From the IMG/VR virus record IMGVR_UViG_2579779052_000002: a stretch of 46,256 nt of DNA. One strand, 5' to 3'. This stretch comes from a virus. Taxonomy: Duplodnaviria > Heunggongvirae > Uroviricota > Caudoviricetes. The translations under genes were made by a program, and so were the position numbers. Under the pieces are notes generated by a model. The model worked only from the letters and a program-made list of their open reading frames with translations, did not search any database and was not told the origin of the DNA. The stretch's first letter is position 1. Each line of letters starts with the position of its first letter. Positions 19,248-46,256 of this stretch are shown one piece after another.

Positions 19248-19291
19248 AACCTGTTACGGGAGGCGCACGCCTCCCGTCCTCCTTATCAGAC

Positions 19292-30336: not shown

Positions 30337-30725
30337 GCCGGATAGGCTCCGTGTGGTAACTGAAAATGCGGTCCGTCTTTCAGGGTCTTCCAGTCGCCGC
30401 CCCATTCCACCGGAATATTCAGTTCCCGGCTGGCCTGTCTGAATGCTGCTGCGATTTTTTCGTACAGCGGCCATTCCCATGACACCTGGCTGCCAACATA
30501 AGCCACAACATCCACGGCATGCCCTGTGAGATGGCGACTGTTCATGGTCTGGCTCTTGCCTGTGGTCACGAGCTGCTTCTGACGATAACGACTGCGCAAT
30601 CCTTCGGTGATACCAAAATCCACTTCCGAGATTTCCAGCGCCCGTCGGGTCACTTTCACCAGATCAGGATTTACACCCTGCAAATTCTTTTCGCTTCGGC
30701 TGCTGAATTTAAATGTGTTGCTCAT
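30333..30725 (-). CDS. endolysin, L-alanyl-D-glutamate peptidase (M15 family)
   Basis: 130 aa with HLTGHAVDV zinc-binding-type motif; sits between holin and spanins. Confidence 0.7.
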   Translation of the reverse strand: MSNTFKFSSRSEKNLQGVNPDLVKVTRRALEISEVDFGITEGLRSRYRQKQLVTTGKSQTMNSRHLTGHAVDVVAYVGSQVSWEWPLYEKIAAAFRQASRELNIPVEWGGDWKTLKDGPHFQLPHGAYPA

Positions 30726-31045
30726 TCGTTCCTCTCCTTCACCCTGCGATCAAATATTGCAATAACCTTGTCGCGTGCTTTCTCTGCGCCCATAAAACCG
30801 ATTGAGGCACCAAAAAACGTCACTGCATCCTCAGGGATCCCGAAGAAGCGCAGCGACCCGGCCACGGCCATGGCAAGAACGCCGCACGCCAGCGATCCCG
30901 TTACGGTCTGAACCAGTGTTCGTCCGTCATAAAGACTCATCAGCGCGGAAATGCTGACAGCCGCGCCTACTGCATACACCGTTGGCAGGTGGTCAAAGAG
31001 CCACGCAATAACCTGCTCTGTGATCCCTGTTTGAATGGTGCTCAC
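30722..31045 (-). CDS. holin (P2 Y-like position)
   Basis: GTG start with GGGGGGAG RBS directly after X stop; 107 aa with hydrophobic segments. Confidence 0.6.
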   Translation of the reverse strand: MSTIQTGITEQVIAWLFDHLPTVYAVGAAVSISALMSLYDGRTLVQTVTGSLACGVLAMAVAGSLRFFGIPEDAVTFFGASIGFMGAEKARDKVIAIFDRRVKERNE

Positions 31046-31047
31046 TG

Positions 31048-31248
31048 CTACTCCCCCCACAACTGAATCATTTCTCGTTTCTTCTTCTCCGGCTCCGGCA
31101 TCTCCACTTCCTGCCCGGCGTCCAGAAATACCTGCTGACAGAGTCCGGGGTTGGCATCCAGCACCTTTTCGGTGACGCCCCGTGTCGTGCCGTAGTACCG
31201 GAAACAGAGCGAATCCACGGTGTCGCCTTCCAGTGCCTTCACTTTCAT
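31048..31248 (-). CDS. X: tail protein X (P2 gpX-like)
   Basis: MKVKALEGDTVDSLCFRYYGTTRGVTEKVLDANPGL... matches P2 gpX (MKTFALQGDTLDAICVRYYGRTEGVVETVLAANPGL...) as recalled. Confidence 0.8.
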   Translation of the reverse strand: MKVKALEGDTVDSLCFRYYGTTRGVTEKVLDANPGLCQQVFLDAGQEVEMPEPEKKKREMIQLWGE

Positions 31249-31742
31249 CAGCACAGCTCCGCAAACATTCGCGGTCGTCCCAGAATGTCAGAGATGGCCC
31301 AGCTCACATCGCGCCACAAATCCGATGTCTGTATATCCAGTGCGTCCGCCCGGCGGTCGCCCTTGTCCGTTGTGTCCGCATCGCGGTAACGCTCCAGAAT
31401 CAGGGCGCGTGTGGCGGTATAAACAGCATTGCGCCAGTGCCAGAGATTGACGCTTTCTCCGTTAATTACAGGGGCCGGAACATCGGCCAGCGTCTGATAG
31501 CCAGCCGCCTGTTGTTCCTGCTGCCATGCTTCCAGCTCGCGGGTAACGTGTGCTATGGCCCCGGTGGCGGTATGCAGCAGGCGGGAGGTGGTCACGCGGC
31601 CCGGCAGTCGTACCGCCAGACGCAGCTCACGCAGCACAATATCCGGCCAGAATGCACCCGCTGAAATGCGAGTGTCGCCATCATCGGTATCGGTGATGTC
31701 GTCCTCTGCGGGGCCGGGGTTAGTTCTGGCAACCATACTCAT
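31248..31742 (-). CDS. L: head completion / stabilisation protein (P2 gpL-like)
   Basis: Start chosen at ATG 31742 with AGGAG RBS; similarity to P2 gpL as recalled (EQFWPDV.../AVSEILG). Confidence 0.8.
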   Translation of the reverse strand: MSMVARTNPGPAEDDITDTDDGDTRISAGAFWPDIVLRELRLAVRLPGRVTTSRLLHTATGAIAHVTRELEAWQQEQQAAGYQTLADVPAPVINGESVNLWHWRNAVYTATRALILERYRDADTTDKGDRRADALDIQTSDLWRDVSWAISDILGRPRMFAELC

Positions 31743-31843
31743 GGGGTTCACTCCTGAAAAAATCGGGCGGTGGGTGCGCGGTGTAAACGGTCACGGAGTC
31801 AAACCGGAACACCGCGCACGCCGCCCGCTGACGGGGTCAGTCG

Positions 31844-32644
31844 TTAACCGCGCTTTGCCTTCTGCGTCGCGGTGGTTTTTCGTGTTGCAGGCTTCCGCGT
31901 TGTCTTTTTATTTTTGCTGCTTTCGTCCTGCGCCTGCTGTGCGCTGGCGTCTTCTGGTTCGGCTGCGGAATCGGCTTTTTTCAGGGCGCGGGAAAGGGTT
32001 GCAATCTCGCGTTTCACACCTGCGTTCGGGTTCAGGTGCATCGCTTCGCGCAGCAGCTTCAGTGAAGAGGCCATGTTGTCTGCATCGGTCAGGCCACGAC
32101 GGGCAAAGGCACACGCCTTGCATAATTTGGCGCGCACTTCGTCCGGAATGTCCTGGTTGGCGACAATTTCCCAAAGTGTGTCCAGTGGTTCGATAAAGGC
32201 GGATAAATCCGCGTCGGCATCCGTCCCAGCCTGCGTCAGTACCGGGTTGCAGATTTCTTCGGTCAGTACCGTGGCAGCAGTACGGCCAAAGTTATCCGGC
32301 ATGATGAGGTTGTGACGGACCACATATGCACCAATACGCAGCGCCAGCGGAAGATCGCCGCAGTCAATCGCCCACACCATCAGCGTGGCAATTACTTCGT
32401 CCTGTTGCCCGCCGTCAGCCTCCAGCGTTCCCTCAATCCAGCCGGAAAAGTCCGGCAACAACTCTTTTTTGATGGCGGCTTTCGCGCTTCTGGCCTGTAT
32501 GGCCTTTAGCCTGGCCTGTGCCAGACGCAGACGATACAGCACTTCTTCATGCGCGGTACACGCGGCGTGGTCCACACCTTCATTCGCCCGGCCTGCGCGC
32601 TGTGCCATCACGTTCTGCCAGTGTTGTTGTGCAGGAGTAATCAT
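31844..32644 (-). CDS. M: terminase endonuclease (small) subunit, P2 gpM-like
   Basis: 266 aa with GGAGAG RBS; position between N and L; basic C-terminal tail. Confidence 0.8.
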   Translation of the reverse strand: MITPAQQHWQNVMAQRAGRANEGVDHAACTAHEEVLYRLRLAQARLKAIQARSAKAAIKKELLPDFSGWIEGTLEADGGQQDEVIATLMVWAIDCGDLPLALRIGAYVVRHNLIMPDNFGRTAATVLTEEICNPVLTQAGTDADADLSAFIEPLDTLWEIVANQDIPDEVRAKLCKACAFARRGLTDADNMASSLKLLREAMHLNPNAGVKREIATLSRALKKADSAAEPEDASAQQAQDESSKNKKTTRKPATRKTTATQKAKRG

Positions 32645-32689
32645 TTTTTCTCTCCGTTACAGGCGGGCATGATGCCCGCCGTGAGTTGA

Positions 32690-33742
32690 TTAGCTGTCGG
32701 CGAACTTCAGGCCAGTGACCATCGCGCACTTGCCATAGTCTTCAACGACATAAGCGTCATTGATGGACTGGTAGGTGGCGATGCGGTTGTATTCCGGCTC
32801 GTCTTTCATCAGACGACGCATTGAACCTTTCTGCCAGTAAATCGACAGGTTGTTGAACGAGGTGATAAGCATCGTTGCATCCGGGAAGAACGGCGCAAGG
32901 AACACGCCCAGCCCGCCAATGGTGCGCGATGACAGGATGAGCTGCCCGGCAAGTAATTCCGCATTGGGATTCTGGCCGCTGATGCTGTTCAGCACGGGCA
33001 GACGCAGCGAGTTAAACAGGTTGCGCCCCATAATCACCACGAGGTCGTCAGCTTCCTTGTGCCATTCATCCAGCAGGGATGAGCGCGCATCCTGTACCAG
33101 AGCATCGGCATTCGCATACTTACCCGCGTGCGCCACAGTGTTGTCCATGTTGCGGGAGGTCAGCGTCACGTCATTCATTACGCGCTCGCTGGCATCGGTT
33201 CTGATGTGCTCCAGCCAGCCCACGTTAACGTCCTGAAGCAGCTTGTTGGTGTGAAAATCAGACTCGTAGGCGTGGGATGTGCCGTTAAAGCCAATCATGA
33301 TGCGATCAAGCGCTACCTGCCGGGCGATCTGTGTACTGATACGGGACTGAAAATCGCTGTGGGCCGCCCAGGTATCAAGCTGTGGGTACGAAATAAAGGT
33401 ATCGTAGTTCACCTGTTCGCACTGGTACTGACGAGACTTCATATCGATCACGTTATTCGGGTTACGGCGTTTGATGCCGTCATAACTGCTATTCGTGCGC
33501 GCAATTGGCCCGGTGGTGTCCAGGAGGATTTTTTCGCCTTTCTGGTCGGTCACGCCGATCACGTTAATTCTTTTCGTAAATTCGGTACTTTCCTTTGAGG
33601 CGTTTTCAAAACGCTGCTGCACCGCGGGTTCCACGGTAAATCGCGATACCAGTGCAGATACCGGGATATTGTTAAGCGACGCCTGCTGCGCCATATAGCA
33701 CCCCAGCTTGTTGCGGGTAATATCTGACATCACCAGATTCAT
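32690..33742 (-). CDS. N: major capsid protein, P2 gpN-like
   Basis: 350 aa; KFTVEP, INVIGVTDQKGEK, DLVVIMGRNLF segments align with P2 gpN as recalled; start could instead be ATG 33730. Confidence 0.85.
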   Translation of the reverse strand: MNLVMSDITRNKLGCYMAQQASLNNIPVSALVSRFTVEPAVQQRFENASKESTEFTKRINVIGVTDQKGEKILLDTTGPIARTNSSYDGIKRRNPNNVIDMKSRQYQCEQVNYDTFISYPQLDTWAAHSDFQSRISTQIARQVALDRIMIGFNGTSHAYESDFHTNKLLQDVNVGWLEHIRTDASERVMNDVTLTSRNMDNTVAHAGKYANADALVQDARSSLLDEWHKEADDLVVIMGRNLFNSLRLPVLNSISGQNPNAELLAGQLILSSRTIGGLGVFLAPFFPDATMLITSFNNLSIYWQKGSMRRLMKDEPEYNRIATYQSINDAYVVEDYGKCAMVTGLKFADS

Positions 33743-33765
33743 AAAAAATTTGCTCCTTTGTCTTA

Positions 33766-34602
33766 TCAGAAGTCAGCCAGCTGGTCGGAGGCTGCGCCCG
33801 TTGCGGTGAAGCGGTTCTGCGGATCGCCGTCCTGCGTGCGCAGTTTTTCCTTCAGTGCTGTCAGCTCTGTGGTCAGTGACGTGATTTTCTGGCGGTCCTG
33901 CTGATGGCGGGTTTCCAGCACATTAAAACGGTCGATAATGTCGGCCTGTGATGTTGCAACGCCTTCCACCGCTTCCTGAATACGGGAGAAACTGGCGTCA
34001 TCCGCTTTGCGGCCACGACCAATAATCCCCATTACGCGGTTAAACCACTGGGTGCCTTCTTCCTGGCGTTGTTCTGCCATTTCGATGATTTCAGACTCGA
34101 TGGCTTCGGAGATAAGCGGTGCTTCACCCTGGATACTGTTGAACGTCATCACCGCCTGACGCTGCTGTGCCGTGAATTTCAGGCGCTCAGTGCCCAGGCT
34201 TGCCGGGGTGTCGGTCATCGCCAGCCCGACCAGATAGGCACGCCCGTTAACGGAGAACTGCGGGTGCAGTTCGATACTGGAATAGATTTTCTTGCCGTCA
34301 GCGACAAGCTGCTTCATGCGCTCGGTCGGTTCGATTTCTGCATACAGCGCAGTACGTCCGGCCAGCGGGCCTTCCGTAATATCTTCCGTACTCAGCGCGG
34401 TGACATCGCCCATTGCGGAAAATTCGCTTGACGGGCATGGCGAGAGATAGTGCTCAACGTTCACGCGGGCAGCGTAAACATCCGGGTTGAAGTTCTCGGC
34501 GGCTTCACGCAGATGCACCGGACTGATTTCACGGCCATCAACAGTTGATCCGGAGACAGCCACGCGAAACTTTTTGCGGGATGTCTTTTTTTCATTAGCC
34601 AT
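33766..34602 (-). CDS. O: capsid scaffolding protein, P2 gpO-like
   Basis: Start chosen at ATG 34602 (MANEKKTSRKKFRVAVSGSTVDGREIS...), aligning with P2 gpO N-terminus as recalled. Confidence 0.85.
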   Translation of the reverse strand: MANEKKTSRKKFRVAVSGSTVDGREISPVHLREAAENFNPDVYAARVNVEHYLSPCPSSEFSAMGDVTALSTEDITEGPLAGRTALYAEIEPTERMKQLVADGKKIYSSIELHPQFSVNGRAYLVGLAMTDTPASLGTERLKFTAQQRQAVMTFNSIQGEAPLISEAIESEIIEMAEQRQEEGTQWFNRVMGIIGRGRKADDASFSRIQEAVEGVATSQADIIDRFNVLETRHQQDRQKITSLTTELTALKEKLRTQDGDPQNRFTATGAASDQLADF

Positions 34603-34756
34603 AGTTTTTGCCCCTCTGACTGGTTCTTCAGTCATGATGGCAAAGCGTAACAGGCTGATACAAAGGGATTTTGTTGTAAGAAAACGGCCAGAACAGGGGG
34701 TTAAGGAGAACAGTTTCGCGCGCGGGTAATCTTCCTGTAATTACTCAGGGGGAGCA

Positions 34757-36508
34757 ATGATTCAGGACGCTTTTGTGCGCCAGCGTGCGCGGCAACTTTA
34801 CTGGCAGGGTTATCCGCCCGCAGAAATATCACGTCTGATGGGAATAAACCCGAACACGATTTATGCGTGGAAAAAACGCGACCAGTGGGATGAAACGCCA
34901 CCCGTGCAGCGTGTCACGCAGTCCATCGATGCGCGCCTCATCCAGCTTACTGAAAAACAGAATAAAACAGGCGGTGACTTTAAGGAAATAGACCTGCTGA
35001 CCCGGCAGCTTAAAAAACTGCATGATGGCCAGCCGGATGCGACGGTCACAGGAAAGAAAGGCCGGGCGAAAAAACTCAAAAATCATTTCACGCCGGAACA
35101 GATTGCCGCACTGCGGGAAAAAATCATCAGCAGGCTGGAGTGGCATCAGCGGGGCTGGTTTGACTCCCTGACCCTTTGCAGGGAAGCCGGGATACGTAAC
35201 AGGATGATCCTGAAATCCCGACAGATTGGGGCGACCTGGTATTTTGCACAGGAAGCTCTGCTGATGGCGCTGCGTGACGATGTGGCGCAACCTTACCAGC
35301 GTAACCAGATTTTTTTGTCTGCGTCGCGTCGTCAGGCGTTCCAGTTTAAAAGCATTATTCAGAAGGCCGCGGCTGAAGTTGATGTGGAGCTGAAAGGGGG
35401 CGATAAAATCATCCTCTCCAACGGCGCAGAGCTGCATTTTCTCGGCACTTCTGCTGCGTCGGCACAGTCCTATACGGGCAATTTTTATTTTGATGAATTT
35501 TTCTGGGTCAGTCGCTTTGCTGAACTGCGCAAGGTGGCTGGCGCTATGGCAACCCTCAGCGGACTGCGGCGCACCTACTTCTCCACGCCATCCACCGAAA
35601 CGCACGAGGCATACGCCTACTGGAACGGCGACCGCTGGAACGAGAAAAAGGCCACGCATAAACGCCAGCGTTTTTCTGTGGACTGGAAAACTCTGCATAA
35701 CGGGCTTATCTGCCCTGACCGGACGTGGCGGCAAATTGTCACGCTGGAAGATGTGGTCAATCACGGCTGGAAACACACCGATATCGACGAAATTCGTGAT
35801 GAAAACACCGAAGACGAGTTCCTCAATCTCTATATGTGTGAGTTTGTCCGCGAAGGGGAATCGGCATTTAACCTGAATATCCTGATTGGCTGCGGTGTTG
35901 ACGGATACGACGACTGGAAAGACTGGAAACCTTTTGCTCCCCGCCCGATGGGGAATCGTCCGGTATGGATTGGGTATGACGCAAACGGCAGTAGTGGCAA
36001 CGGCGACAGCGGCGCTGTGTCCGTGGTGGTTCCTCCGGCTGTTCTTGGTGGCCGTTTTCGAACGGTGGAGACGCGACGCGTTCAGGGGCTGGAGTTTGAA
36101 GAACAGGCCAGAGTCATTGAAGAGTTCACGTATCGCTACAACGTGGAACACATCGGCATTGATGTGACGGGCGGGAACGGGGAGGCTGTTTATCAGATAG
36201 TGAAACGGTTTTTCCCTGCTGCTATTCCGTACACCTTCACGCTGTCATCAAAACGGTCGCTGGTACTGAAAATGCTGCAAATAATGCGTGCCGGGCGGTG
36301 GGAATACGATCGCGCCGAACGCGAGCTGGTCGCGGCCTTTAACGCCGTGCGTAAGGTGAAAACACCGGGCGGCTTTATCACTTACGAAACGGACCGCGCG
36401 AGGGGGATCAGCCACGGCGACCTTGCGTGGGCAACCATGCTTGCTGTCATTAACGAACCGATTGGCGGCGAAGGAGAAAACGAGCGTTTCACGGTTATGG
36501 AGTTCTGA
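34757..36508 (+). CDS. P: terminase ATPase (large) subunit, P2 gpP-like
   Basis: 583 aa with GGGGGAG RBS; divergent from O as in P2; ATPase-like region around KSRQIGATWYFA. Confidence 0.9.
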   Translation: MIQDAFVRQRARQLYWQGYPPAEISRLMGINPNTIYAWKKRDQWDETPPVQRVTQSIDARLIQLTEKQNKTGGDFKEIDLLTRQLKKLHDGQPDATVTGKKGRAKKLKNHFTPEQIAALREKIISRLEWHQRGWFDSLTLCREAGIRNRMILKSRQIGATWYFAQEALLMALRDDVAQPYQRNQIFLSASRRQAFQFKSIIQKAAAEVDVELKGGDKIILSNGAELHFLGTSAASAQSYTGNFYFDEFFWVSRFAELRKVAGAMATLSGLRRTYFSTPSTETHEAYAYWNGDRWNEKKATHKRQRFSVDWKTLHNGLICPDRTWRQIVTLEDVVNHGWKHTDIDEIRDENTEDEFLNLYMCEFVREGESAFNLNILIGCGVDGYDDWKDWKPFAPRPMGNRPVWIGYDANGSSGNGDSGAVSVVVPPAVLGGRFRTVETRRVQGLEFEEQARVIEEFTYRYNVEHIGIDVTGGNGEAVYQIVKRFFPAAIPYTFTLSSKRSLVLKMLQIMRAGRWEYDRAERELVAAFNAVRKVKTPGGFITYETDRARGISHGDLAWATMLAVINEPIGGEGENERFTVMEF

Positions 36509-37554
36509 TGAGCAGAAAAAATAAAAAAGTGCGCATGAGTTCACGCATTGATCTCGCTGATGCGCTCAGGAAAGAATCATCGCTCAGTGCATTCACATTT
36601 GATGGTCCTTATCGCCTGACCGGGCATGACCTGCTGGACAATATGTACTGTGCTGATAACGGACGGTGGTATGAAACCCCGGTGGACTGGTACGGTCTGG
36701 CAAGAGCAGCCCGGCAAACGTCCTGGCATCAGTCTGCGCTTTACTTTAAGCGCAATGTATTACTCGGTTGCTACATCCCGCACCCGCTGCTTTCCCGGCA
36801 GGATTTCTCGGCGCTGGCGCTGGACTGGTTTGTGTTCGGTAACGCATTCCTTGAGCTTAGAAGCAATATGCTCGGCGAACCGCTTAAATTACGGCACGCC
36901 CTGGCGAAATACATGCGACGCGGAAGCGATCTTGAATCATGGTGGTATGTGCAGGATGGCAAGGACGCGTTCCAGTTTCGCCCTGGCAAAGTGTGCCACC
37001 TGATGAATCCGGATATTAACCAGGAAATCTACGGCATGCCGGAATATCTTGGCGCATTACTCTCGGCCAGCCTTTCTCATTCGGCGGACATGTTCAGAAA
37101 ACTGTACTACGACAACGGATCCCACGCCGGGTGCATCATCTACATCGGTGCAGCGCAGGTAAACCGCGAAAGCATGGACTCCCTGAAAGAAACGTTACAG
37201 GGCGCGCGTGGTGGTGGTGCGTTTAAAAACGTACTCATCCATGCGCCCAACGGGGGCAAAGAAGGTGTGCAAATTTTGCCGTTCCAGCAGATCACTGCAA
37301 AGGATGAGTTCATGAATGTTAAGGCGGCATCCCGTGATGATGTGCTGGCTGCGCACCGCGTTCCGCCGCAACTGATGGGGGCGATGCCGGGCGAAAAAAG
37401 TGCGTTTGGTGATGTGGAGAAGGCCGCGCGGGTTTACGCAATTAACGAGCTGATGCCCGTCATGGAGGCCATGAAGCACATCAATGACTGGCTTGGCGAA
37501 GAGGTGATCCGCTTTAACCCTTACGCACTGCTAGATACCCAGCCCACATCCTGA
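36508..37554 (+). CDS. Q: portal protein, P2 gpQ-like
   Basis: 348 aa, start overlaps P stop (TGATG); P-Q order as in P2. Confidence 0.9.
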   Translation: MSRKNKKVRMSSRIDLADALRKESSLSAFTFDGPYRLTGHDLLDNMYCADNGRWYETPVDWYGLARAARQTSWHQSALYFKRNVLLGCYIPHPLLSRQDFSALALDWFVFGNAFLELRSNMLGEPLKLRHALAKYMRRGSDLESWWYVQDGKDAFQFRPGKVCHLMNPDINQEIYGMPEYLGALLSASLSHSADMFRKLYYDNGSHAGCIIYIGAAQVNRESMDSLKETLQGARGGGAFKNVLIHAPNGGKEGVQILPFQQITAKDEFMNVKAASRDDVLAAHRVPPQLMGAMPGEKSAFGDVEKAARVYAINELMPVMEAMKHINDWLGEEVIRFNPYALLDTQPTS

Positions 37555-38005
37555 CGCGCTTCGCTTGTCTGCTGCTTCGCCGGGGCATAAAAAATTTATG
37601 CCCCGACTCTCCAGCTCCTGTATCAATCAGATAATTTCACGACGCTTTTCTGCTTATTGTCATCATCGGCGGTCAGACTCTTACGCAATCCCACCGCGTT
37701 GACTGCATGTTCTCGCCGCCTCAGTGCGATTTTGACGGCCTTATCTGCCACCCATCAAATCAAAAGCCCTCACGTCTTTTTCACGCTCAGCGTGAGAAAT
37801 ACAGCCATTCTGTTGTGTCGCTGCGACATCGTTCAGGGGATGCTATTTACCCCCTGAAACGCGGGCTGTTCCCCCGTCACCTGCGCGCAGAAAAAACGCG
37901 TTTTTTTGTGCACGTACGGATCCTTGACGGATCCAGCCACCACGCGGGCCGGAAGTACAAAAAGTCGTTCAAAAAAATTGTGCAAACTTGTGCACTATCG
38001 TGCAA

Positions 38006-38031
38006 ACAAAAAAAGCGCCTTATCGGCGCTT
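38006..38031 (-). terminator. intrinsic terminator after the 38040-38309 gene
   Basis: Minus strand AAGCGCC-GATAA-GGCGCTT followed by TTTTTTTGTTTG. Confidence 0.6.
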
Positions 38032-38039
38032 CAAAAGTA

Positions 38040-38309
38040 TCAATTGTTGCTGTTTATTAATCGCCAACCACGAACATATGCTTCATAGGCATCTCTGTGC
38101 CTTACAGTTCCAGCCTGGCTAAACGGAATGTTAGCTAAAACTAAATCATTCTGAGCCATAGCGCGTCCTTCAAGCGCATCTTTTATGCCTAGCTCAAAAG
38201 CACAGGCAGCGCATTTGTGCCGACCTTCTTGTCCTTGATATTCAGGGAGAGACAGAAATGTTGGATTATAACGATGAGGGTTCTTGCAAATACCTGTTTT
38301 AGCCCGCAC
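38040..38309 (-). CDS. hypothetical protein (89 aa), possible Cys-containing small regulator
   Basis: GTG start with GAGG RBS; followed by a strong terminator; no family recognised. Confidence 0.45.
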   Translation of the reverse strand: MRAKTGICKNPHRYNPTFLSLPEYQGQEGRHKCAACAFELGIKDALEGRAMAQNDLVLANIPFSQAGTVRHRDAYEAYVRGWRLINSNN

Positions 38310-38673
38310 TTTATTTACCTCATAGGAAAAATATGCGTGCCTTTACAGAGGTGCGTGTAAGCAATAAAATATACGACGCACATTTTGATTTACTTCGGAA
38401 GGCACGCATATCAGGTTAAGTGAGTCCGACCGAGTTTTACGCCCCAATAGTTGCTGCTATTGGGGCGTTTTGCATGGACAATGCCGCGCAATTATCTTGT
38501 CGCTCACAATGCGAACGATCTTACAAAAAGGCACATTACTGTCAAGATAATTGATCGTTTTAATCGATAGATAATAGACAATCTATTTGTTTAACAGATC
38601 GATTATTGAAGTAAGTGTGCCAAATGGAATGATACTGTCTCTATAAACGTGAGCATTTTTCGCGCAGATGCTT

Positions 38674-38985
38674 TTACTCAGGAAATAACGCCCGGATATT
38701 CCCAGCCATCTGGCTGGTTATCTTAGCCACTGGTGCAGACTGTGCTTCAAACTTTTTTGAGCTGATTTGTGTCACAGGTAACATCTCATCATCAGCCCAT
38801 GCGGCCAGTCGGTAAGCCTCTGCCGGATTCGTCTTCAGAAGTGCCAGCCCGGCCAGAAAAGCCACGCGTTGGCCGCTTTTGCGGGCTTCTGGTGTAAGGC
38901 TGTCCAGCCAGGCGCATGCTTCTCCTTCGTTCTTGACGGCGGCGGGCTTCAGATAGAAACTTATCCGTCTGGTTGGTGTCGTCAT
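38674..38985 (-). CDS. parR: ParR/StbB-like centromere-binding protein
   Basis: Start chosen at ATG 38985 (MTTPTRRISFYLKPAA...KSGQRVAFLAGLALL), resembling plasmid R1 ParR N-terminal RHH region as recalled; directly downstream of parM. Confidence 0.6.
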   Translation of the reverse strand: MTTPTRRISFYLKPAAVKNEGEACAWLDSLTPEARKSGQRVAFLAGLALLKTNPAEAYRLAAWADDEMLPVTQISSKKFEAQSAPVAKITSQMAGNIRALFPE

Positions 38986-38989
38986 TGGT

Positions 38990-39949
38990 TTACTCCTTGT
39001 CCATTGCGTACAGCCCATTAACCAGAGCAAACTGTGGCACCCCGTCCGCGATGAAAGTCGCATTAACTCCGCAGGCTTCGCGGATAGCGGGTGCCACAAT
39101 CTCCGCCCCGCCACCGACAACCATCACCCGCCCGTAACCCGAAAAAACCGCCAGCGCGCGGATCACGCGTTGTTTCAGTGTTTCTTCCTTTTCACGAATA
39201 ACCGCCATCAGGCTGGCGTAATGCGCGTCATTGTGGATGTGCTGGCGCAGCCAGGCTTCATTATGGCGATGTTCGATAATGGTATTGGCGATGTGGTGAC
39301 TGGTGCGCATACCGTTAGTGGCCATCACCGACAGTACGGCATCGGCCATAAGAGAAACGCCTACGTGTGGATCGCAAAACACCTGGCTGATACCTGCCAG
39401 TTGCCCCTGAACCTTTGCCACATCCAGCGTGGTTCCGCCCAAATCCACAATCAGCAGGGATTCAAACGGACTCATGTCAGCCAGTGCTTTAAAGCCAGCC
39501 GGAATGGATTCAGGCATAACCCGTACGTTACGGATAGTGAATGCTTCGCCGTTCTGGTACTCCACCGGGCGCATGACGTTCGCTTTTTTGCGGTTGATGT
39601 TGGCCATGTCCGGCTGTGCGTTTGTGTCGAAATATTCGCTCAGTGGCAGGGTAACAACCACATCCACTTCCTGTGGCGTGATGTCTGATTTGACCAGCGC
39701 GTGATGAATGGCAATGACATTCACATCGCTGTACTGGTATTGCGTGTCGGTCGTCTGGACAAAGCGATCGCTGACCGGATCAAAACCATAGCGCACGCCA
39801 TCAAGCATGTAGTTAGCAGGCTGCGAGCCACCGAACGGCGCAGACCATTCCGACTTGAAGCTGTTCGGGCTGATGGCGTTGCGGCGTTCGCCGTTCTCAG
39901 TCCATGCCAGCTTGATGTTGGTGGAGCCGTCGTCGATGTAAATTTTCAT
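38990..39949 (-). CDS. parM: ParM/StbA-like actin-fold partition ATPase
   Basis: 319 aa; motifs IDDGSTNIK, MPESIPAG, LIVDLGGTTLDV, VMVVGGGAE match actin-like ParM (R1 StbA) as recalled; AAGGAAAA RBS. Confidence 0.8.
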   Translation of the reverse strand: MKIYIDDGSTNIKLAWTENGERRNAISPNSFKSEWSAPFGGSQPANYMLDGVRYGFDPVSDRFVQTTDTQYQYSDVNVIAIHHALVKSDITPQEVDVVVTLPLSEYFDTNAQPDMANINRKKANVMRPVEYQNGEAFTIRNVRVMPESIPAGFKALADMSPFESLLIVDLGGTTLDVAKVQGQLAGISQVFCDPHVGVSLMADAVLSVMATNGMRTSHHIANTIIEHRHNEAWLRQHIHNDAHYASLMAVIREKEETLKQRVIRALAVFSGYGRVMVVGGGAEIVAPAIREACGVNATFIADGVPQFALVNGLYAMDKE

Positions 39950-39977
39950 GTCGGTTTTCCTTATGTTGATTAATTAA

Positions 39978-40096
39978 TCGTTTACGGGATTCTGAAATCC
40001 CGTTTTTGCCTGTTTTGTGCGCGCTTCATATATCGCTGCGCGTTTTTTGCTCATTTACGGGATTCGTGAGTCCCGTTTCTGTCTGTTTTTTGTTTC
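39978..40096. repeat. two ~45-bp direct repeats (73 bp apart), each with an ACGGGA-loop-TCCCGT hairpin followed by a T-rich tract
   Basis: TTTACGGGATTCTGAAATCCCGTTTTTGCCTGTTTTGT and TTTACGGGATTCGTGAGTCCCGTTTCTGTCTGTTTTTTGT; one copy in the A-parM spacer, one in the last codons of A. Confidence 0.8.
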
Positions 40097-42866
40097 CACT
40101 GGTCAGGCCACCCCGCAGCAGGTCTGCTTTGCGGCTGGCGCGTTCAGTGGTTTCACTGATTCTCTGTGCGTGCTCTGCGTCGCGGATGGCGCGCAGCATG
40201 TCAGAAAGCACGGTAACGGGTGTTTTCATGGTGTTCTGGTCCTGCTGAAGTGTGGATGCCAGGCGTGCGGCGGCTTCAGGGTCTGATGCCCCCAGCTGTG
40301 CCAGATAGCTGGCGACCGGGTTATGGCGGATCTCCGTGCTGCTTACGCCATGATTACGGCTCAGACGCTGCCAGAGCTGCGTGATTCGGCTGTCCGGGCG
40401 GGTATCCGGTTTGCGTACAATTTCAAATCCCTGCGGTGCAATGATGCTGCCGTCAACGTACAGACTGCCGCCCCGTAACAGGTGCTGCATCTGTTGTTCA
40501 CCGATATGCAGGCCGAGAGATTCAGCAGACTCCCGCCATTCTTTAGCGAGTAACTCGTGGTTATCAGGCAAAGGCCGCTGCTGTTTGCGGCTCTGTGTCC
40601 AGTTCTGCATTTCATCGCTGCTGTTTTTTGCCTGTTTGTCACGAAGCGAACGCATCAGCGCCCGGCGTTCGTGCCGTTTCAGTGAGCGCATCCATTCATT
40701 TACTTCAACGCCGTCAGGAAGCTGCGGCCACGGTGCTGGCCGTTCTTCCGGCTGTTCTGTCCCGTTGTTGCCTGTTTCCTGTACACGGGGACAGTTATTG
40801 CCACGAGTCCAAGGGGCGGCAGGGCCGCCCTGAAGGTCAAAACCATTTTCGCGGGCGCTGTCTTCCGCTTCCGGTTTACGTCTTACCAGCTTCCAGTTAT
40901 CCGGATGCGTGCACACACGGGAGGATTCCCCGATGAATGGCGACCAGATCCCGTAAATCTGTACACTCTGTTCGCCGTAATCGTTCAGCTCATCTGCGAG
41001 GTCGTAGGCTGTGCGAATCAGGTAGTCCTTGCGCGGAACAAGTACGCCACCCTGTTTTTCAATGTAGGTGGCAAAACATCCGGCATCAGCGGCAGCGAGT
41101 ACCGCATCCATTGCATCATCCTTCAGCCGTTGTGGGCCTTCCGGGTTGCGTGCCATCTGGCTGGCAAGGCGGCGGAGTTCACGCCATACCTGACGGGAGG
41201 GGATGCCAAAGAACTGGAACTGGCGGACCCGGTGAAGGCGTGCCCAGCCGATGGCGCGTTCCACGCTCTCGGCCATTGATTTTCCGGTTTCGTGGTCAAC
41301 GCGTGGCTTGCCCGTTTTCGGGTCGATGCCATCCACGGCGCGGCTGTCCAGGTTCTTTCCGATGTAGGTGGCGATGTAGCTGGTTGGCGTGCCTTTTGAG
41401 CCGTCGACATACTCCACCTTAAAGCGCGGAGTAATATCATTGCCCAGCTCGTGGCGGTCTTCCTGAATGGCAATATCGCGGGTGTGGGACACAATGGTGT
41501 CGATTTCTTCCGGATGAGCAAAGACCATCATATGCCAGTGCACGGTGCCGTCATGGTGAGGCTCCACCGTGCGGATGCCATACCAGCGCAGGCCGTCGCG
41601 GTTCAGTTTCTTGCGGACCGCCGCAAAAAACGTGTTAACCAGGTAATCGCTGGAGTCGCGCATGGTGGCCCCGTTCCATTTGGGATTCGGATGACCGTTC
41701 TCTGTTGTGGCGTGGTATTTTGACGGGCAGGTGACAGTCAGAAACACCGCTCTGTCGCCACGGGCTTCGGCCAGAAGTTCCAGCCCCTTCATGGTGGCCA
41801 TCATTTCTGCCTTACGGTGAATCGGGTTACTTACTCCCGCGTAATACACTGTCTCGAGATCAATCGTGAACCCGTCTTCGTTTTCCAGCATGAAACTTTT
41901 CAGGAAATCGCGTGTTTTCTCGCGCTGTGCGCGAAACTCGCTTAACGCGTCCTGGCTCAGATAGGGTGATGTTTTTCTGGAAACCAGACAGGCGGCGCGG
42001 AGTTGTTCTTCTCTCCACTCGCAACGTAACAGCCACAGTTTGCGTTTCCACCATTCCGCACAGGTCAGGCGAAGGATTGCGCCCGGCAGCAGCTCCGTGT
42101 CCGGTTCATTCCTCCGGTCTTTGTCTGTTGTCAGAGCGTCATAATGTGGAGGCATAGCGTGCAGGTGTAACGCCATGCGGGCCAGCATCTGATACGCCTT
42201 CAGCGTTACATCCATGGTCAGCTCGCCATCGGTCGCGCCAAAGCCATCGCAGAGTTTTTCAAAAGTGCCACTGAACATCGCCGCCGTCATGGTGGCCAGC
42301 GTCTGTATCTGGTGTTTGTTGAGCTGCGGCAGGTAAAGCAAATCGTCCAGGCGTTCGCGTCCGGCAAGGGAGCGATAGCCCGGTGTCAGCCAGCGGCTGT
42401 CGGTGCGGTCCAGACGTTCGAATATTTTGCGCAGGGTTCCGCGCGCGTAGCGTTCAGCCTGCCAGCTCTTTTTGCCTTTCTGACGATCGGCTTCCTGCTT
42501 CTTGCGCAGAAAAGAGAGGTGGCGGCTCAGAGGTTCACGCAGATAAACGGGAAGCACCTTCAGTGTGGCAAAAGCACGGGCCACCGGGTCTTGTTCTGTT
42601 GCCTGACGCTTGCTGATGATGCTTTGTGCCAGCTTTTCACGCTGTCCGGCTTCCTCAAGGGATGCCATGAGTTTTTTACCCACGGTGGATTGTGCGAAAA
42701 AGGCTTCTTCCTTCGCTTCCTGTTCTTCCTGTGCCCTTTTGTTTGCCTCAAGGTAGTAACGGATGGCGCGTTGCAGGTCGGTTTCAGTTTCCTGCCTGCG
42801 CTCCGTAAATCTGGCCGGATCAATGGCTGGCCGTGGTTCATTCCAGCTCCATGCAAACGCACTCAT
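40026..42866 (-). CDS. A: replication initiation endonuclease (P2 gpA-like, HUH rolling-circle family)
   Basis: HUH motif HWHMMVF and tyrosine motif SYIATYIGK; start set at ATG 42866, ATGA-coupled to the upstream gene (ORF track starts 27 nt earlier). Confidence 0.8.
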   Translation of the reverse strand: MSAFAWSWNEPRPAIDPARFTERRQETETDLQRAIRYYLEANKRAQEEQEAKEEAFFAQSTVGKKLMASLEEAGQREKLAQSIISKRQATEQDPVARAFATLKVLPVYLREPLSRHLSFLRKKQEADRQKGKKSWQAERYARGTLRKIFERLDRTDSRWLTPGYRSLAGRERLDDLLYLPQLNKHQIQTLATMTAAMFSGTFEKLCDGFGATDGELTMDVTLKAYQMLARMALHLHAMPPHYDALTTDKDRRNEPDTELLPGAILRLTCAEWWKRKLWLLRCEWREEQLRAACLVSRKTSPYLSQDALSEFRAQREKTRDFLKSFMLENEDGFTIDLETVYYAGVSNPIHRKAEMMATMKGLELLAEARGDRAVFLTVTCPSKYHATTENGHPNPKWNGATMRDSSDYLVNTFFAAVRKKLNRDGLRWYGIRTVEPHHDGTVHWHMMVFAHPEEIDTIVSHTRDIAIQEDRHELGNDITPRFKVEYVDGSKGTPTSYIATYIGKNLDSRAVDGIDPKTGKPRVDHETGKSMAESVERAIGWARLHRVRQFQFFGIPSRQVWRELRRLASQMARNPEGPQRLKDDAMDAVLAAADAGCFATYIEKQGGVLVPRKDYLIRTAYDLADELNDYGEQSVQIYGIWSPFIGESSRVCTHPDNWKLVRRKPEAEDSARENGFDLQGGPAAPWTRGNNCPRVQETGNNGTEQPEERPAPWPQLPDGVEVNEWMRSLKRHERRALMRSLRDKQAKNSSDEMQNWTQSRKQQRPLPDNHELLAKEWRESAESLGLHIGEQQMQHLLRGGSLYVDGSIIAPQGFEIVRKPDTRPDSRITQLWQRLSRNHGVSSTEIRHNPVASYLAQLGASDPEAAARLASTLQQDQNTMKTPVTVLSDMLRAIRDAEHAQRISETTERASRKADLLRGGLTSGNKKQTETGLTNPVNEQKTRSDI

Positions 42867-43252
42867 GGCTGGTATCCCGTCACGCGCTGCCACTCCTGTG
42901 AGAAGAGGGCGGAAAGGCGGTTAAATTCAGCGGAGTATTCACTCAGCGAGGCACACCCGCCAGCAGTGCGATGCGCCAGCATTGCCGCAAATATGGAGGC
43001 CGGGGAGTCGTAATACGCCAGCAGTGATTCGCCGTGTGGTGTCAGGCAGTGCAACGCCAGCCCGTGTGGTGTGAAGTCCACGCGGTAGCAGTCGTCTACT
43101 GTGAAATAAAGGGTGTCTGCATTCTCCGGTTTTGTGGTGCGTGCTCTGTTGTCACGACCACGGATGTAGAGATCAAATAATCCCTGAAGAACGGGAGCCA
43201 GACGGGTGTCCTGTGTGCGCACCCATCTTGTGAAGTCATGAGCGTCAATCAT
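42863..43252 (-). CDS. hypothetical protein (129 aa), early operon
   Basis: ATG ORF translationally coupled to A. Confidence 0.55.
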   Translation of the reverse strand: MIDAHDFTRWVRTQDTRLAPVLQGLFDLYIRGRDNRARTTKPENADTLYFTVDDCYRVDFTPHGLALHCLTPHGESLLAYYDSPASIFAAMLAHRTAGGCASLSEYSAEFNRLSALFSQEWQRVTGYQP

Positions 43253-43360
43253 GCTGCAATTCTCTTTACTACAGATGTGCGAAGGCTTCCTGCCAAAAAA
43301 CTCAGAAGCGGTCGGTTACAGGAATTGACGTTCTACGAGTAGTTATTGCTGGCTTGAGGT

Positions 43361-43579
43361 TCATTTCTGTTTAATTCCGTGCATGCTGTAGAAGAAATCA
43401 AAAGTGTTATCTATGCGTATCATGAGCTCACGCTGCATCGCTTCTGGTGTTTCTGGTTCGCCTGGTGAGCCAACTCCCGCGAAGAAATCACCGATCTCGC
43501 TTTGAATAAGTGCCTTTAGCGTTGCTGAGGAACTCAGGTGTGTTCGGTGATGTCTGCGAGTGATTCTTCTCCTACTCAT
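43361..43579 (-). CDS. hypothetical protein (72 aa)
   Basis: ATG ORF, ATGA-coupled to the upstream gene. Confidence 0.45.
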   Translation of the reverse strand: MSRRRITRRHHRTHLSSSATLKALIQSEIGDFFAGVGSPGEPETPEAMQRELMIRIDNTFDFFYSMHGIKQK

Positions 43580-43779
43580 TTGCGTGGATCCTGTACCTGT
43601 CGGATAAGATTCACCCGCGCCACATTAGTGGCGCAAAAGTAAGTGCCGTCAGTGAGATAGATGTGGTGTGCATCCTTTTCTGAGCGGTGTTTGTCGATTG
43701 TGGTAATCAGACGTTCGTCGACTTCGTATTCACGTCCTCTGGAGGTGAAACGAACGACAGGAAAATGCTTAATTGCCAT
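43576..43779 (-). CDS. hypothetical protein (67 aa)
   Basis: Start chosen at ATG 43779 with AAGGAGG RBS (ORF track starts at an upstream GTG). Confidence 0.55.
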   Translation of the reverse strand: MAIKHFPVVRFTSRGREYEVDERLITTIDKHRSEKDAHHIYLTDGTYFCATNVARVNLIRQVQDPRK

Positions 43780-43865
43780 TACGCCTCCTTGGTGTGTGTG
43801 AATACCTCTGCGAATGCAGATTGTGTTCACATTTTTTTATTTAAGCTGGGGTTTTATTTATGCGG

Positions 43866-43979
43866 TTATTCGCCAGTGAAAAAGCGTTCAATCTTTTTTA
43901 CTGAATTAATAATTCGCATAATACCAATTGCACAAACCACCGAAATAATAAGAACAATCCAGGATATAAATATACTCAT
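43866..43979 (-). CDS. small hydrophobic peptide (37 aa, single predicted TM)
   Basis: Below ORF-track cutoff; MSIFISWIVLIISVVCAIGIMRIINSVKKIERFFTGE, ATGA-coupled to the upstream gene. Confidence 0.35.
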   Translation of the reverse strand: MSIFISWIVLIISVVCAIGIMRIINSVKKIERFFTGE

Positions 43980-44218
43980 GCGATATTTCCCAGTTTGTAC
44001 GGCTCAATATGCTCCCCGCATTCTGCGGCGCAGATAAGCTCAGAAAGTTCATTAAGCGCATCCAGATCGTCAGCGTAAAAAGCTACGTCATACAGACTCC
44101 GGATAGCCCTGGTCAATGAGTCACGGGCTGCACGTTCTGAATGAGCGCCGGATGCGCTTAAACGAAAATAAAAACGCTCAAGTGCTTTGTTGATGAGAGT
44201 TTTATATTCTTTATCCAT
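43976..44218 (-). CDS. hypothetical protein (80 aa)
   Basis: ATG with AAGGGTG RBS. Confidence 0.5.
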   Translation of the reverse strand: MDKEYKTLINKALERFYFRLSASGAHSERAARDSLTRAIRSLYDVAFYADDLDALNELSELICAAECGEHIEPYKLGNIA

Positions 44219-44229
44219 CGCAACACCCT

Positions 44230-44508
44230 TTAATCTGCTTTCTGAATTTCAGCTTCTGAATCCATGCAGATAATCTCGATATAGGGTTCATCGCCATTAA
44301 CCTGACGAGATTTTTCGGCTTCGCTAATTATTTCGCGAATGATCTGGTACGGAAGCTCTACAGTCAGGCGTGTACCGTTCAGATAAACGTAGGTAGCTGC
44401 GTTTTTTTCAGATGGAACTACTCCGTCAATAGCTGATGCGCGTAATAACAGTTCACCGCGAAAATCAATAAAGCGGATAAATACACCTTGTGCATGGTCT
44501 TTAGTCAT
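44230..44508 (-). CDS. hypothetical protein (92 aa)
   Basis: ATG with AGGTG RBS. Confidence 0.5.
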   Translation of the reverse strand: MTKDHAQGVFIRFIDFRGELLLRASAIDGVVPSEKNAATYVYLNGTRLTVELPYQIIREIISEAEKSRQVNGDEPYIEIICMDSEAEIQKAD

Positions 44509-44518
44509 AAAGCACCTG

Positions 44519-44869
44519 TTATAAAGCAGCCTGTTTAATAAAACTTTGCCCGCGAAGCAGACGATCGACTGTGCGTAGTGCTTCGTACAATGTGAAATCC
44601 TGCCCGAACTGATTATCGCCGCTGCTTAATGCAAAAATGCGGTTTCCGGTAAACGGATTGTGTGGGCATCTGTGAACCACGATTCCAGCTTTCTCAATCA
44701 GCCAGGTGTGTTCGCCGATTTGTTTTACAGCGTGCCCATCTGGTGTTGCGTGCGTCTCGTTCAGGTTATAGCGGCTGTTACTACGTGATGCACTGGTAGC
44801 GACGTGGTGTACATGGCGTTCTACGCCATTACGAAATTTGGAGTATGGATTATTAGTGTTTTTTTTCAT
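44519..44869 (-). CDS. hypothetical protein (116 aa)
   Basis: ATG ORF in early operon; weak RBS. Confidence 0.45.
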   Translation of the reverse strand: MKKNTNNPYSKFRNGVERHVHHVATSASRSNSRYNLNETHATPDGHAVKQIGEHTWLIEKAGIVVHRCPHNPFTGNRIFALSSGDNQFGQDFTLYEALRTVDRLLRGQSFIKQAAL

Positions 44870-44890
44870 GATGATGCTCTGTTCATTGTT

Positions 44891-45094
44891 TTAGCTGTTA
44901 GCCAAAGCGTCTTTTAACATCGCCACAAGGTTTACTTCAGGCTTTTCCATTTTGGCGCGTTTGGGGCGGATAATAATTCGACCGTCAGCCAACATCTTTT
45001 TGCATGTATTAAGAGGGATACCTGTTATCTCTGCATATTTCTGCAGGGATACATAGGGGGCATTCACATTGATATTGATGGTTATACCTGACAT
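44891..45094 (-). CDS. cox: Cox-like HTH excisionase/regulator
   Basis: 67 aa; APYVSLQKYAEITGIPLNTCKKMLADGRI resembles P2 Cox HTH (IPYQEFAKLIGKSTGAVRRMIDKGKL) as recalled. Confidence 0.55.
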   Translation of the reverse strand: MSGITININVNAPYVSLQKYAEITGIPLNTCKKMLADGRIIIRPKRAKMEKPEVNLVAMLKDALANS

Positions 45095-45110
45095 CCCACT
45101 AGCCTCCTGA

Positions 45111-45317
45111 TCAGGAAGATTTGTTTTGTTCTTTCTGGGTTAGCTCTAGGCCGCGAAGGAAGATCATGCGCGCCATGTTAGAGGATGAGCGTTGTTCTTT
45201 AGCTGCCATTTCATCAATGACGGCTCGCTCCTCGAGGGACAGCCGAAGTGCCAGTCTTGGACCTGTGGCGGTGTTACGCGGAATGCGTGATCTGGTATCG
45301 TGAAGAACTTGTTTCAT
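45111..45317 (-). CDS. small ribbon-helix-helix-like regulator, first gene of the early operon
   Basis: 68 aa, RLSLEERAVIDEMAAKEQRSSSNMARMIFLRGLE; no obvious RBS (possibly leaderless); divergent from repressor. Confidence 0.45.
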   Translation of the reverse strand: MKQVLHDTRSRIPRNTATGPRLALRLSLEERAVIDEMAAKEQRSSSNMARMIFLRGLELTQKEQNKSS

Positions 45318-45359
45318 AGTGGTATATTGTGATCATCTAATAGCTCGTGAAATCATTTT

Positions 45360-45377
45360 GGTATCAAAAAAGATACC
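45360..45377. promoter_or_regulatory. candidate operator GGTATC-AAAAAA-GATACC in divergent repressor/early promoter region
   Basis: Perfect 6-bp-arm inverted repeat 15 bp upstream of the repressor ATG; a related half-site GGTATA lies at 45321. Confidence 0.4.
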
Positions 45378-45392
45378 TGTCAAGGTTTTTGT

Positions 45393-45797
45393 ATGAAAAA
45401 TGATATTGGTCAGCGGTTGCGTGAGGAAAGGGAAAGATTGGGACTTAGTCAAGTTGCCATGAGCGACATTGGTGGAGTCAAAAAGCTAACTCAGCTTAGA
45501 TATGAGAAAGGAGATAGCTTTCCTGATGCTGCGTATTTGGCAGCGCTGTCTCGTTTTGGCCTTGATGTTCAGTATGTTGTGTTGGGAATTCACTCACCTG
45601 AAACTTATAACGATGATGAGCAGGAGTTGATTACTCGCTTTCGAGCAGCTTCGTTAGATGTGAAAAACGCGGTGATCGGGGCTTTAAAAGGTGCGATCAG
45701 TGAAAAGGAAACTCAGCCATCAGGACGTGAGTTAAATATTTCTGGTGGTAATAACCGTATCGCTGGTCGTGACTATAACGAAACTAAGGGTAGGTGA
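45393..45797 (+). CDS. XRE-family HTH repressor (immunity repressor candidate)
   Basis: 134 aa; N-terminal HTH (IGQRLREERERLGLSQVAMSDIGGVKKLTQLRYEKGDSFP); divergent from the cox-like operon. Confidence 0.7.
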   Translation: MKNDIGQRLREERERLGLSQVAMSDIGGVKKLTQLRYEKGDSFPDAAYLAALSRFGLDVQYVVLGIHSPETYNDDEQELITRFRAASLDVKNAVIGALKGAISEKETQPSGRELNISGGNNRIAGRDYNETKGR

Positions 45798-45812
45798 TAG
45801 TAGGGAGGTGAC

Positions 45813-45893
45813 ATGGCCGTCAACTCAAACGGTTCAAACAATCGCGTTGCTGGGCGTGATTTTCACGAAAAGAATATTCAGATAGAGCGATAT
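45813..45893 (+). pseudogene. ORF truncated by IS1 insertion
   Basis: ATG 45813 with GGGAGGTG RBS; reads MAVNSNGSNNRVAGRDFHEKNIQIERY then runs into the IS1 left end at 45894. Confidence 0.55.
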
Positions 45894-46256
45894 GGTGATG
45901 CTGCCAACTTACTGATTTAGTGTATGATGGTGTTTTTGAGGTGCTCCAGTGGCTTCTGTTTCTATCAGCTGTCCCTCCTGTTCAGCTACTGACGGGGTGG
46001 TGCGTAACGGCAAAAGCACTGCCGGACATCAGCGCTATCTCTGCTCTCACTGCCGTAAAACATGGCAACTGCAGTTCACTTACACCGCTTCTCAACCCGG
46101 TACGCACCAGAAAATCATTGATATGGCCATGAATGGCGTTGGATGCCGGGCAACCGCCCGCATTATGGGCGTTGGCCTCAACACGATTTTCCGCCATTTA
46201 AAAAACTCAGGCCGCAGTCGGTAACCTCGCGCATACAGCCGGGCAGTGACGTCATC
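45894..46256 (+). mobile_element. IS1 insertion sequence, left end and insA (continues beyond window)
   Basis: GGTGATGCTGCCAACTTACTGATTTAGTGTATGATGGTG matches IS1 left inverted repeat as recalled, followed by insA. Confidence 0.9.
45949..46224 (+). CDS. insA: IS1 transposase InsA
   Basis: 91 aa, [91 protein letters not shown]. Confidence 0.95.

Follow-up and report, generated by a model that had tools for sequence, protein, structure and literature searches.

Genes surrounding the repeats

The DNA analysed here is a stretch of 46,256 nucleotides (the window), the minus strand of which carries, in the region of interest, the early region of a P88-like (Xuanwuvirus, P2-like) prophage. With phage P88 and its relatives this region shares 96-98% identity, and it has matches in 1373 of 5426 complete E. 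coli genomes. Gene A (40026-42848, minus strand) codes for a 940-residue protein with a strong match to Phage_GPA (E = 9e-130) and ends with a stop codon at 40026-40028. Downstream of it are parM (38990-39949, minus strand), encoding an actin-like partition ATPase with StbA_N and ParM C-terminal domains, and parR (38674-38985, minus strand), encoding an adaptor protein presumed to bind DNA; a gap of 4 nt separates parM from parR. The ParM product matches PF06406 (E = 1e-80), PF21523 (E = 3e-68) and the structure of R1 ParM (1MWK; E = 7.7e-92), and ParR matches PF10784, Plasmid_stab_B (E = 1e-23). Neither ParM nor ParR matched any defence family in a PADLOC scan.

The parM leader (39950-39977, minus strand) contains the sequence TTAATCAA and an AAGGA Shine-Dalgarno motif, both of which are also present in the Plesiomonas and Hafnia relatives described below. 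A promoter scan of the interval between A and parM, including the leader, found no sigma-70 promoter, and inspection by eye showed only poor -35/-10 candidates; parMR may be transcribed by read-through from A, and the repeats described here may not act as an operator. Late-promoter boxes of the Ogr type (TGT-N12-ACA) are absent from the repeats as judged by eye.

Structure of the two repeats

A repeat search identified two direct repeats of 42 nt each, at 39978-40019 and 40051-40092, which are identical at 34 of 42 positions (81%) and have a start-to-start distance of 73 bp. A sequence-only reading of this DNA had proposed two direct repeats of about 45 bp placed 73 bp apart; the number, orientation and spacing were correct, and the size was slightly overestimated. 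Dinucleotide-preserving shuffles of the 1.1-kb region (n = 300) gave a mean of 23.7 matches for the best pair of 42-nt windows (sd 1.0, maximum 27), compared with the 34 observed, and the 25-nt consensus TTTACGGGAYTCNNNARTCCCGTTT has just two sites in the 46-kb window (0.00 expected), these being the two repeats themselves.

Each repeat contains a dyad of the form ACGGGAyT-N4-ArTCCCGT with eight pairs and a 4-nt loop, at 39984-40003 and 40057-40076, followed on the 3' side by a T-rich run on the plus strand; a terminator scan flags both as terminator-like. The stem of ACGGGA, loop and TCCCGT with a T-rich run after it, which the sequence-only reading had reported for each repeat, is therefore present in both copies. 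Its placement of one repeat in the spacer between A and parM and of the other over the last codons of A is borne out by the coordinates of the copies relative to the A stop codon. The proximal copy (box D; 39978-40019) has the dyad ACGGGATTTCAGAATCCCGT, read on the minus strand, and lies within the 76-nt A-parM spacer with its GGG 52 nt upstream of the parM ATG. The distal copy (box U; 40051-40092) has the dyad ACGGGACTCACGAATCCCGT, also read on the minus strand, with its GGG 125 nt upstream of the parM ATG, and lies within the final codons of gene A, at approximately residues 919-933 (KKQTETGLTNPVNE).

The 31 bp between the copies (40020-40050) contain the A stop codon together with one further AAAACGCG element, which shares its helical phase with the A-tracts of the repeats, and are the stretch that varies most among close relatives. 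Weak AAAC(G/A)GG sub-elements accompany the two repeats, and the A-tract and AAAC elements taken together are phased at 10.4-10.5 bp (R = 0.93; Rayleigh p ~0.002, in a test that was post hoc).

Co-inheritance of the repeats with parMR

Three prophages in complete E. coli genomes (L112, L113 and L114) carry a P88-like gene A with other cargo and no parMR, and in all three both repeats are absent. The 3' regions of their A genes are about 92-96% identical to that of the window and their origin sequence (see below) is identical, but homology to the window ends at 40117-40142, after the residues ...RKA(D/T)LL, and is followed by three different A tails. The genes downstream are a methylase and an AAA ATPase in one of these prophages and hypothetical genes in the others. 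The segment from which these siblings diverge corresponds in the window to the last ~30 codons of A (40026-40116, minus strand), which encode the tail RGGLTSGNKKQTETGLTNPVNEQKTRSDI before the stop codon.

The converse arrangement is seen in an IMG/VR locus (L073), in which A ends earlier and a separate, unrelated open reading frame of 155 codons (2457-2924 of that locus, with CxxC pairs) precedes parM. This reading frame ends in ...AEKQTKTGFTNPVNEQKTRSDI and a stop codon, and its C-terminal tail, KQTKTGFTNPVNEQKTRSDI, is the tail of A in the window; homology between this locus and the window starts at 40090, where the distal copy has its outer edge. Because an unrelated open reading frame shares the tail of A, the distal copy is cassette DNA that is read into by whichever open reading frame lies upstream, and the last ~30 A codons are part of the par cassette and not of conserved A. 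In a Hafnia locus (L084) the gene upstream of parM is again different, an unrelated open reading frame of 167 codons; we considered that it might be a split-off C-terminal domain of A and rejected this, as it shows no similarity. In Enterobacter, two genes lie between A and parM. The distribution across these genomes shows that the repeats are inherited together with parMR and not with A, whatever the neighbouring genes.

Conservation in more distant lineages

Divergent parMR pairs were found in P2-like prophages of Hafnia and Plesiomonas (62% ParM identity), Serratia (57-58%) and Enterobacter (53%). The E. coli, Salmonella, Plesiomonas and Hafnia elements have exactly two GGG-N10-CCC boxes each, spaced by 72-73 bp, one at -125 to -131 and the other at -52 to -59 relative to the parM ATG. 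Within 150 nt of the ATG these boxes hold every CCC and every GGG but one, which adjoins the Plesiomonas ATG; as a background level, GGG-N10-CCC occurs 0.26 times per kb across the whole window. By contrast, the DNA around and between the boxes cannot be aligned across the E. coli, Plesiomonas and Hafnia lineages, and the A C-terminal tails encoded over the distal box are unrelated as proteins. Across lineages, the boxes keep their core with its 13-bp register, the interval from one box to the other and their distance from parM.

The hairpins are not kept to the same degree. In Plesiomonas and Hafnia the stems are reduced to 3-4 pairs with 10-nt loops, no T-run follows the boxes on the antisense strand, and the distal boxes have predicted folds of only -6.5 kcal/mol (Plesiomonas) and -4.6 kcal/mol (Hafnia, z = -0.3). 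This pattern of conservation fits a binding site for a protein on double-stranded DNA better than a hairpin formed in RNA or single-stranded DNA.

Among close relatives the picture is less distinctive. Compensatory double changes are absent from the 55 haplotypes compared, and conservation in the boxes does not exceed that of the neighbouring coding DNA, a pattern that does not help to choose between a hairpin and a protein-binding site. Pair-breaking changes occur at 40058 and 40057, and the window itself has a C at 40070 that creates a C.A mismatch. Some haplotypes of close relatives differ by CCC>CCT, by GGG>AGG or in an outer pair, and just one box is retained in a few elements. The GGG>AGG change is present in both boxes of L073 and in only the distal box of L123. 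One element (L032) has a single hybrid box produced by a 73-bp deletion between the repeats, and in another (L169) an IS66-family element abuts the proximal box and parM is frameshifted.

The Serratia and Enterobacter clade (L088, L092, L107, L111 and L115) does not have the two-box layout. Instead, these elements have a long inverted repeat upstream of parM, GGGAAC...ATAGAAAAAT // ATTTTTCTGT...GTTCCC, with arms GGGAACGAAATAGAAAAAT ... ATTTTTCTrTTTC(GTTCCC). The arms of this inverted repeat resemble the T-rich iterons of plasmid parC, and the same clade has a GCCGTTTAAACGGC palindrome closer to parM. A scan of a genome collection yielded 18 loci, mostly of plasmid-type parMRC, and in the plasmid relatives (~50% ParM identity) a promoter at the same position is flanked by classical T-rich 11-bp iterons. 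With iterons in the plasmids, an inverted repeat in one group of phages and two boxes in another, lineage-specific repeats upstream of parM appear to be the rule in this family. The Hafnia and Plesiomonas lineages, which are intermediate, are thinly sampled, since scans of IMG/VR with the Hafnia and Plesiomonas ParM queries gave zero loci and one locus, respectively.

Transcription signals, RNA structures and recombination scars

The sequence-only reading had also raised the possibility that the repeats are tandem terminators of plus-strand transcription, and the local sequence is compatible with this in the E. coli lineage. On the plus strand the hairpins have predicted energies of -11.4 and -10.2 kcal/mol, their eight-pair stems contain four G-C pairs each, and they are followed on that strand only by TTTTTGCC and TTTCTGTC, in accord with the result of the terminator scan. 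Such terminators could block antisense read-through into A from the late P and Q genes (34757-37554, plus strand), which point toward the repeats, or from elsewhere, and the scan revealed no convincing plus-strand terminator between Q and parR. However, no plus-strand gene ends at the repeats, which are 2.4 kb past Q and within a minus-strand operon, and after the second hairpin just three U residues precede a C. Moreover, the Plesiomonas and Hafnia boxes retain the core, spacing and position with weak stems and without T-runs, so that termination is not a conserved property of the element in its relatives. Termination leaves the conservation unexplained and would at most be an addition in the E. 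coli lineage or a secondary role; as the explanation of the repeats we consider it unlikely.

A second possibility is that the repeats form stem-loops on the sense strand, in an A-parM-parR transcript, where they might process or stabilize the mRNA or modulate the translation of parM. The minus-strand folds are slightly better relative to shuffled sequences than those of the plus strand (z = -3.5 and -3.1), and three changes seen in close relatives (40003 A>G, 39986 C>T and 40075 C>T) would keep G-U pairs in minus-strand RNA. Other polymorphisms, however, break pairs (those noted above at 40058, 40057 and 40070), double changes that would restore pairing are lacking among the haplotypes, and the stability of the hairpins is not kept in Hafnia and Plesiomonas. 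There is no Rfam match at E <= 1 in 39700-40400, and neither the 72-73 bp spacing nor the helical phasing has an obvious meaning for an RNA. We regard a role as RNA structures as very unlikely.

The repeats could also be a scar of no function, arising either from a 73-bp tandem duplication or as a recombination joint left by cargo insertion. They are located exactly at the mosaic junction of a known recombination hotspot, the deletion in L032 shows that the two copies can collapse into one, and conservation among close relatives is unremarkable, all of which speaks in favour of such a scar. A neutral duplication would nonetheless not be expected to keep two cores, their spacing and their distance from parM at 62% ParM identity when the DNA between them is unalignable, and we give this explanation very little weight.

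Location of the replication origin

The hairpins at the end of A had been proposed in the sequence-only reading to be the nick site or origin for the HUH endonuclease A, on the grounds that P2 has its origin within the 3' part of gene A. The premise is correct, in that the P2 nick site is annotated at position 29892 of NC_001895, at approximately codon 620 of 761, and the 186 origin is placed at 28576 in its record. Both of these sites are within the sequence ...CTCGGAGTyCTGTCAATAACTGT, which encodes a conserved xVNNC motif. The comparison with the mapped P2 and 186 origins that the sequence-only reading had called for does not lead to the repeats, but to 40791-40820 on the minus strand of the window (GCCGCCCCTTGGACTCGTGGCAATAACTGT, with core CAATAACTGT), which is outside of the par module and separated from the repeats by about 715-840 bp. 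Neither the nick region (in P2, GCGCCTCGGAGTCCTGTCAATAACTGT) nor its homologue in the window shows any similarity to the repeats.

The decamer CAATAACTGT is identical at the DNA level, including at synonymous positions, in ten A genes whose products share 30-100% identity (those of P2, 186, the window, Plesiomonas, Serratia, Hafnia, Enterobacter and three E. coli siblings), and identity at synonymous positions is what a cis-acting site within coding sequence should show. The P88 record contains the homologue of 40791-40820 with no origin annotation. It is likely that 40791-40820 is the origin of the window's phage. The repeats resemble the mapped P2 and 186 origins in belonging to the same phage family and in their gene neighbourhood, the 3' part of A, and differ from them in sequence, with the window counterpart of those origins being elsewhere.

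Although gene A holds the P2 and 186 origins in its 3' part and rolling-circle origins commonly have hairpins, it is extremely improbable that the repeats are an origin, nick site or accessory replication signal (such as for the primosome or single-strand initiation) used by A, given the invariant nick-region homologue at 40791-40820, the dissimilarity of the repeats to it, the siblings L112-L114 that share A and the origin but lack the repeats, and the A tails over the boxes that are not conserved as protein. It would be natural to take hairpins found where A ends for the phage origin, and the comparison corrects that guess.

A putative parC-like site upstream of parM

The alternative also named in the sequence-only reading, a parC-like centromere, is the one favoured by the comparative evidence, specifically the co-inheritance of the repeats with parMR and the conservation of the two boxes. 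We estimate a probability of roughly two in three that the two repeats constitute a parC-like, ParR-binding centromere and possibly an operator, composed of two dyad boxes rather than arrays of 11-bp iterons of the R1 type. The assignment of ParR as the binding protein and of the site as centromere or operator is by analogy with the plasmid systems.

In plasmid R1, parC is located upstream of parM, and the binding of ParR to it both builds the partition complex and represses the promoter (PMC2241845). R1 parC is 159 bp long, bipartite and strongly curved, with two sets of five direct 11-bp iterons on either side of a 39-bp promoter spacer (PMC2241845). The element in the window is similar to it in several respects: it is directly upstream of parM in a parM-parR operon, its ParM is a clear homologue of that of R1, its ParR belongs to the same Pfam family, and it is a bipartite repeat element of ~115-150 bp with phased A-tract DNA, resembling the curved parC of R1. 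It differs in that the iteron sets around the promoter are replaced by two GGG-N10-CCC dyad boxes 73 bp apart with no detectable promoter, in that the 3' end of the upstream open reading frame contains the distal box, and in that the element resides on an integrating P2-like prophage and not on a plasmid. Because the scan found no sigma-70 promoter between or beside the boxes, the operator half of the R1 model is unsupported here.

The mechanism that we would expect, by analogy, is as follows. The repeats would provide the cis-acting site for a type II (ParMRC) partition cassette, carried by the phage as cargo in the gpA-gpQ hotspot. The two boxes (CGGGAyT ... ArTCCCG), being 73 bp or ~7 helical turns apart, would be presented on the same face of the A-tract-phased DNA upstream of parM. 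ParR (Plasmid_stab_B, with a presumed ribbon-helix-helix N-terminus) would bind each box as a dimer of dimers and could spread onto the flanking AAAC(G/A)GG elements, and the resulting complex of ParR and boxes would act as the adaptor that captures the ends of ParM filaments through the conserved ParR C-terminal tail. ParR may also autoregulate parMR. The overlap of the distal box with coding sequence would arise only because the upstream reading frame reads in until it meets the stop codon in the spacer.

Dimers of dimers are familiar at ribbon-helix-helix operators, examples being the 20-bp repeats of pSK41 parC and the operators of Arc and CopG. Such operators consist of short subsites, arranged as dyads or in tandem and separated by about one turn of the helix, which may be set beside the 13-bp GGG-to-CCC register of the boxes.

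Conservation and variation of ParR

The N-terminal sequence PTRRISFYLKP of ParR is unchanged in 54 of 55 distinct variants from P88-like loci, the remaining one having Y in place of F, and RRISFYLKP is invariant in an alignment of 23 ParR sequences. The C-terminal NIxxxFP tail is also conserved. In the lineages with two boxes the N-terminal strand reads TRR(I/V)SFYL, in contrast to NRKISFYL in the Serratia and Enterobacter clade; this correlation of strand with type of upstream site, which involves two clades only, speaks for ParR as the likely binding protein. An AlphaFold2 model of the ParR monomer built from the 23-sequence alignment is of low confidence (mean pLDDT 58); it has predicted helices at residues 20-29 and 32-52 and lacks the N-terminal strand. 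A sequence search of the PDB with ParR gave no match.

Among the P88-like prophages (L002-L081 and L119-L201) ParR is far more variable than ParM, which is 97-99% identical. The 55 distinct ParR sequences fall into two allele classes that are ~54% identical to each other, with a hypervariable linker at residues ~66-92. This variability could reflect either mosaic recombination or diversifying selection within the cassette. There is no covariation between ParR allele class and box sequence within E. coli, the boxes being the same in both classes.

Partition cassettes as prophage cargo

The gpA-gpQ interval has been described as a hotspot for cargo genes, where approximately one in four P2-like phages of E. 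coli has a putative plasmid partitioning system (Rousset et al. 2022, PMC9122126). The par cassette in the window is at the same locus as the cargo systems reported in that study (PMC9122126), whose authors suggest that the partition system perhaps allows maintenance as plasmids (PMC9122126). The cis-acting site of the P2-like partition system is not described in the main text of PMC9122126 or in the literature that we searched. What is added here is the definition of the two-box element and of the cassette boundary, and the proposal of a parC-like site with an unusual two-dyad architecture that partly overlaps an upstream open reading frame.

ParMRC is a textbook actin-based machine for DNA segregation that has been studied almost entirely on plasmids, and the par cassette is among the commonest cargoes of E. 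coli P2-like prophages; its presence has been noted before with its cis site left undefined. The boxes, their spacing and the cassette boundary are now located, which makes the system directly testable, and the layout of the putative centromere differs from that of R1.

A more far-reaching proposal is that the P2-like prophages of roughly one E. coli genome in four encode a functional ParMRC system that positions or segregates excised or replicating circles, that its centromere is a minimal two-box dyad site, unlike plasmid iteron arrays and partly within upstream coding sequence, and that the ParR linker is under diversifying selection. Taken as a whole this is unlikely. If it were true, segregation would serve either plasmid-like carriage or the sorting of genomes during lytic growth, and the occurrence of two ParR allele classes beside a near-invariant ParM and invariant boxes would be a sign of diversifying selection, which could stem from conflict among co-resident prophages or from an exclusion function of hotspot cargo.

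Other features of the window

Positions 1 to ~30000 of the window contain lambdoid prophage genes, including those for a tail fibre, J, tape measure, portal, capsid-protease, TerL, Rz and a NanS-like esterase. The P2-like element (~30000-46256) has capsid and terminase genes but is without P2 tail genes within the window, and it looks like a truncated remnant beside a lambdoid prophage, like Sp13 in O157 Sakai. The par cassette in the window may not be part of a viable phage.

About 640 nt downstream of parR there is a strong terminator-like site on the minus strand at 38012-38032 (GAAGCGCCGATAAGGCGCTTT followed by TTTTGTTTG), which is inside an open reading frame annotated in the P88 record and is a candidate for the end of the early or cargo transcript. 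A larger dyad, TTCAGGGGATGCTATTTACCCCCTGAA, is present at 37828-37860 between the portal gene Q and the cargo, near the expected position of cos; it has a GGGAT-N..-CCC core, and its likeness to the par boxes may be due to chance. Finally, a perfect G+C-rich palindrome, ACGGGAGGCGCACGCCTCCCGT, with the same ACGGGA and TCCCGT ends as the repeats, is situated at 19256-19277, where it separates the portal and capsid-protease genes of the lambdoid part, and is probably an unrelated terminator or structure.
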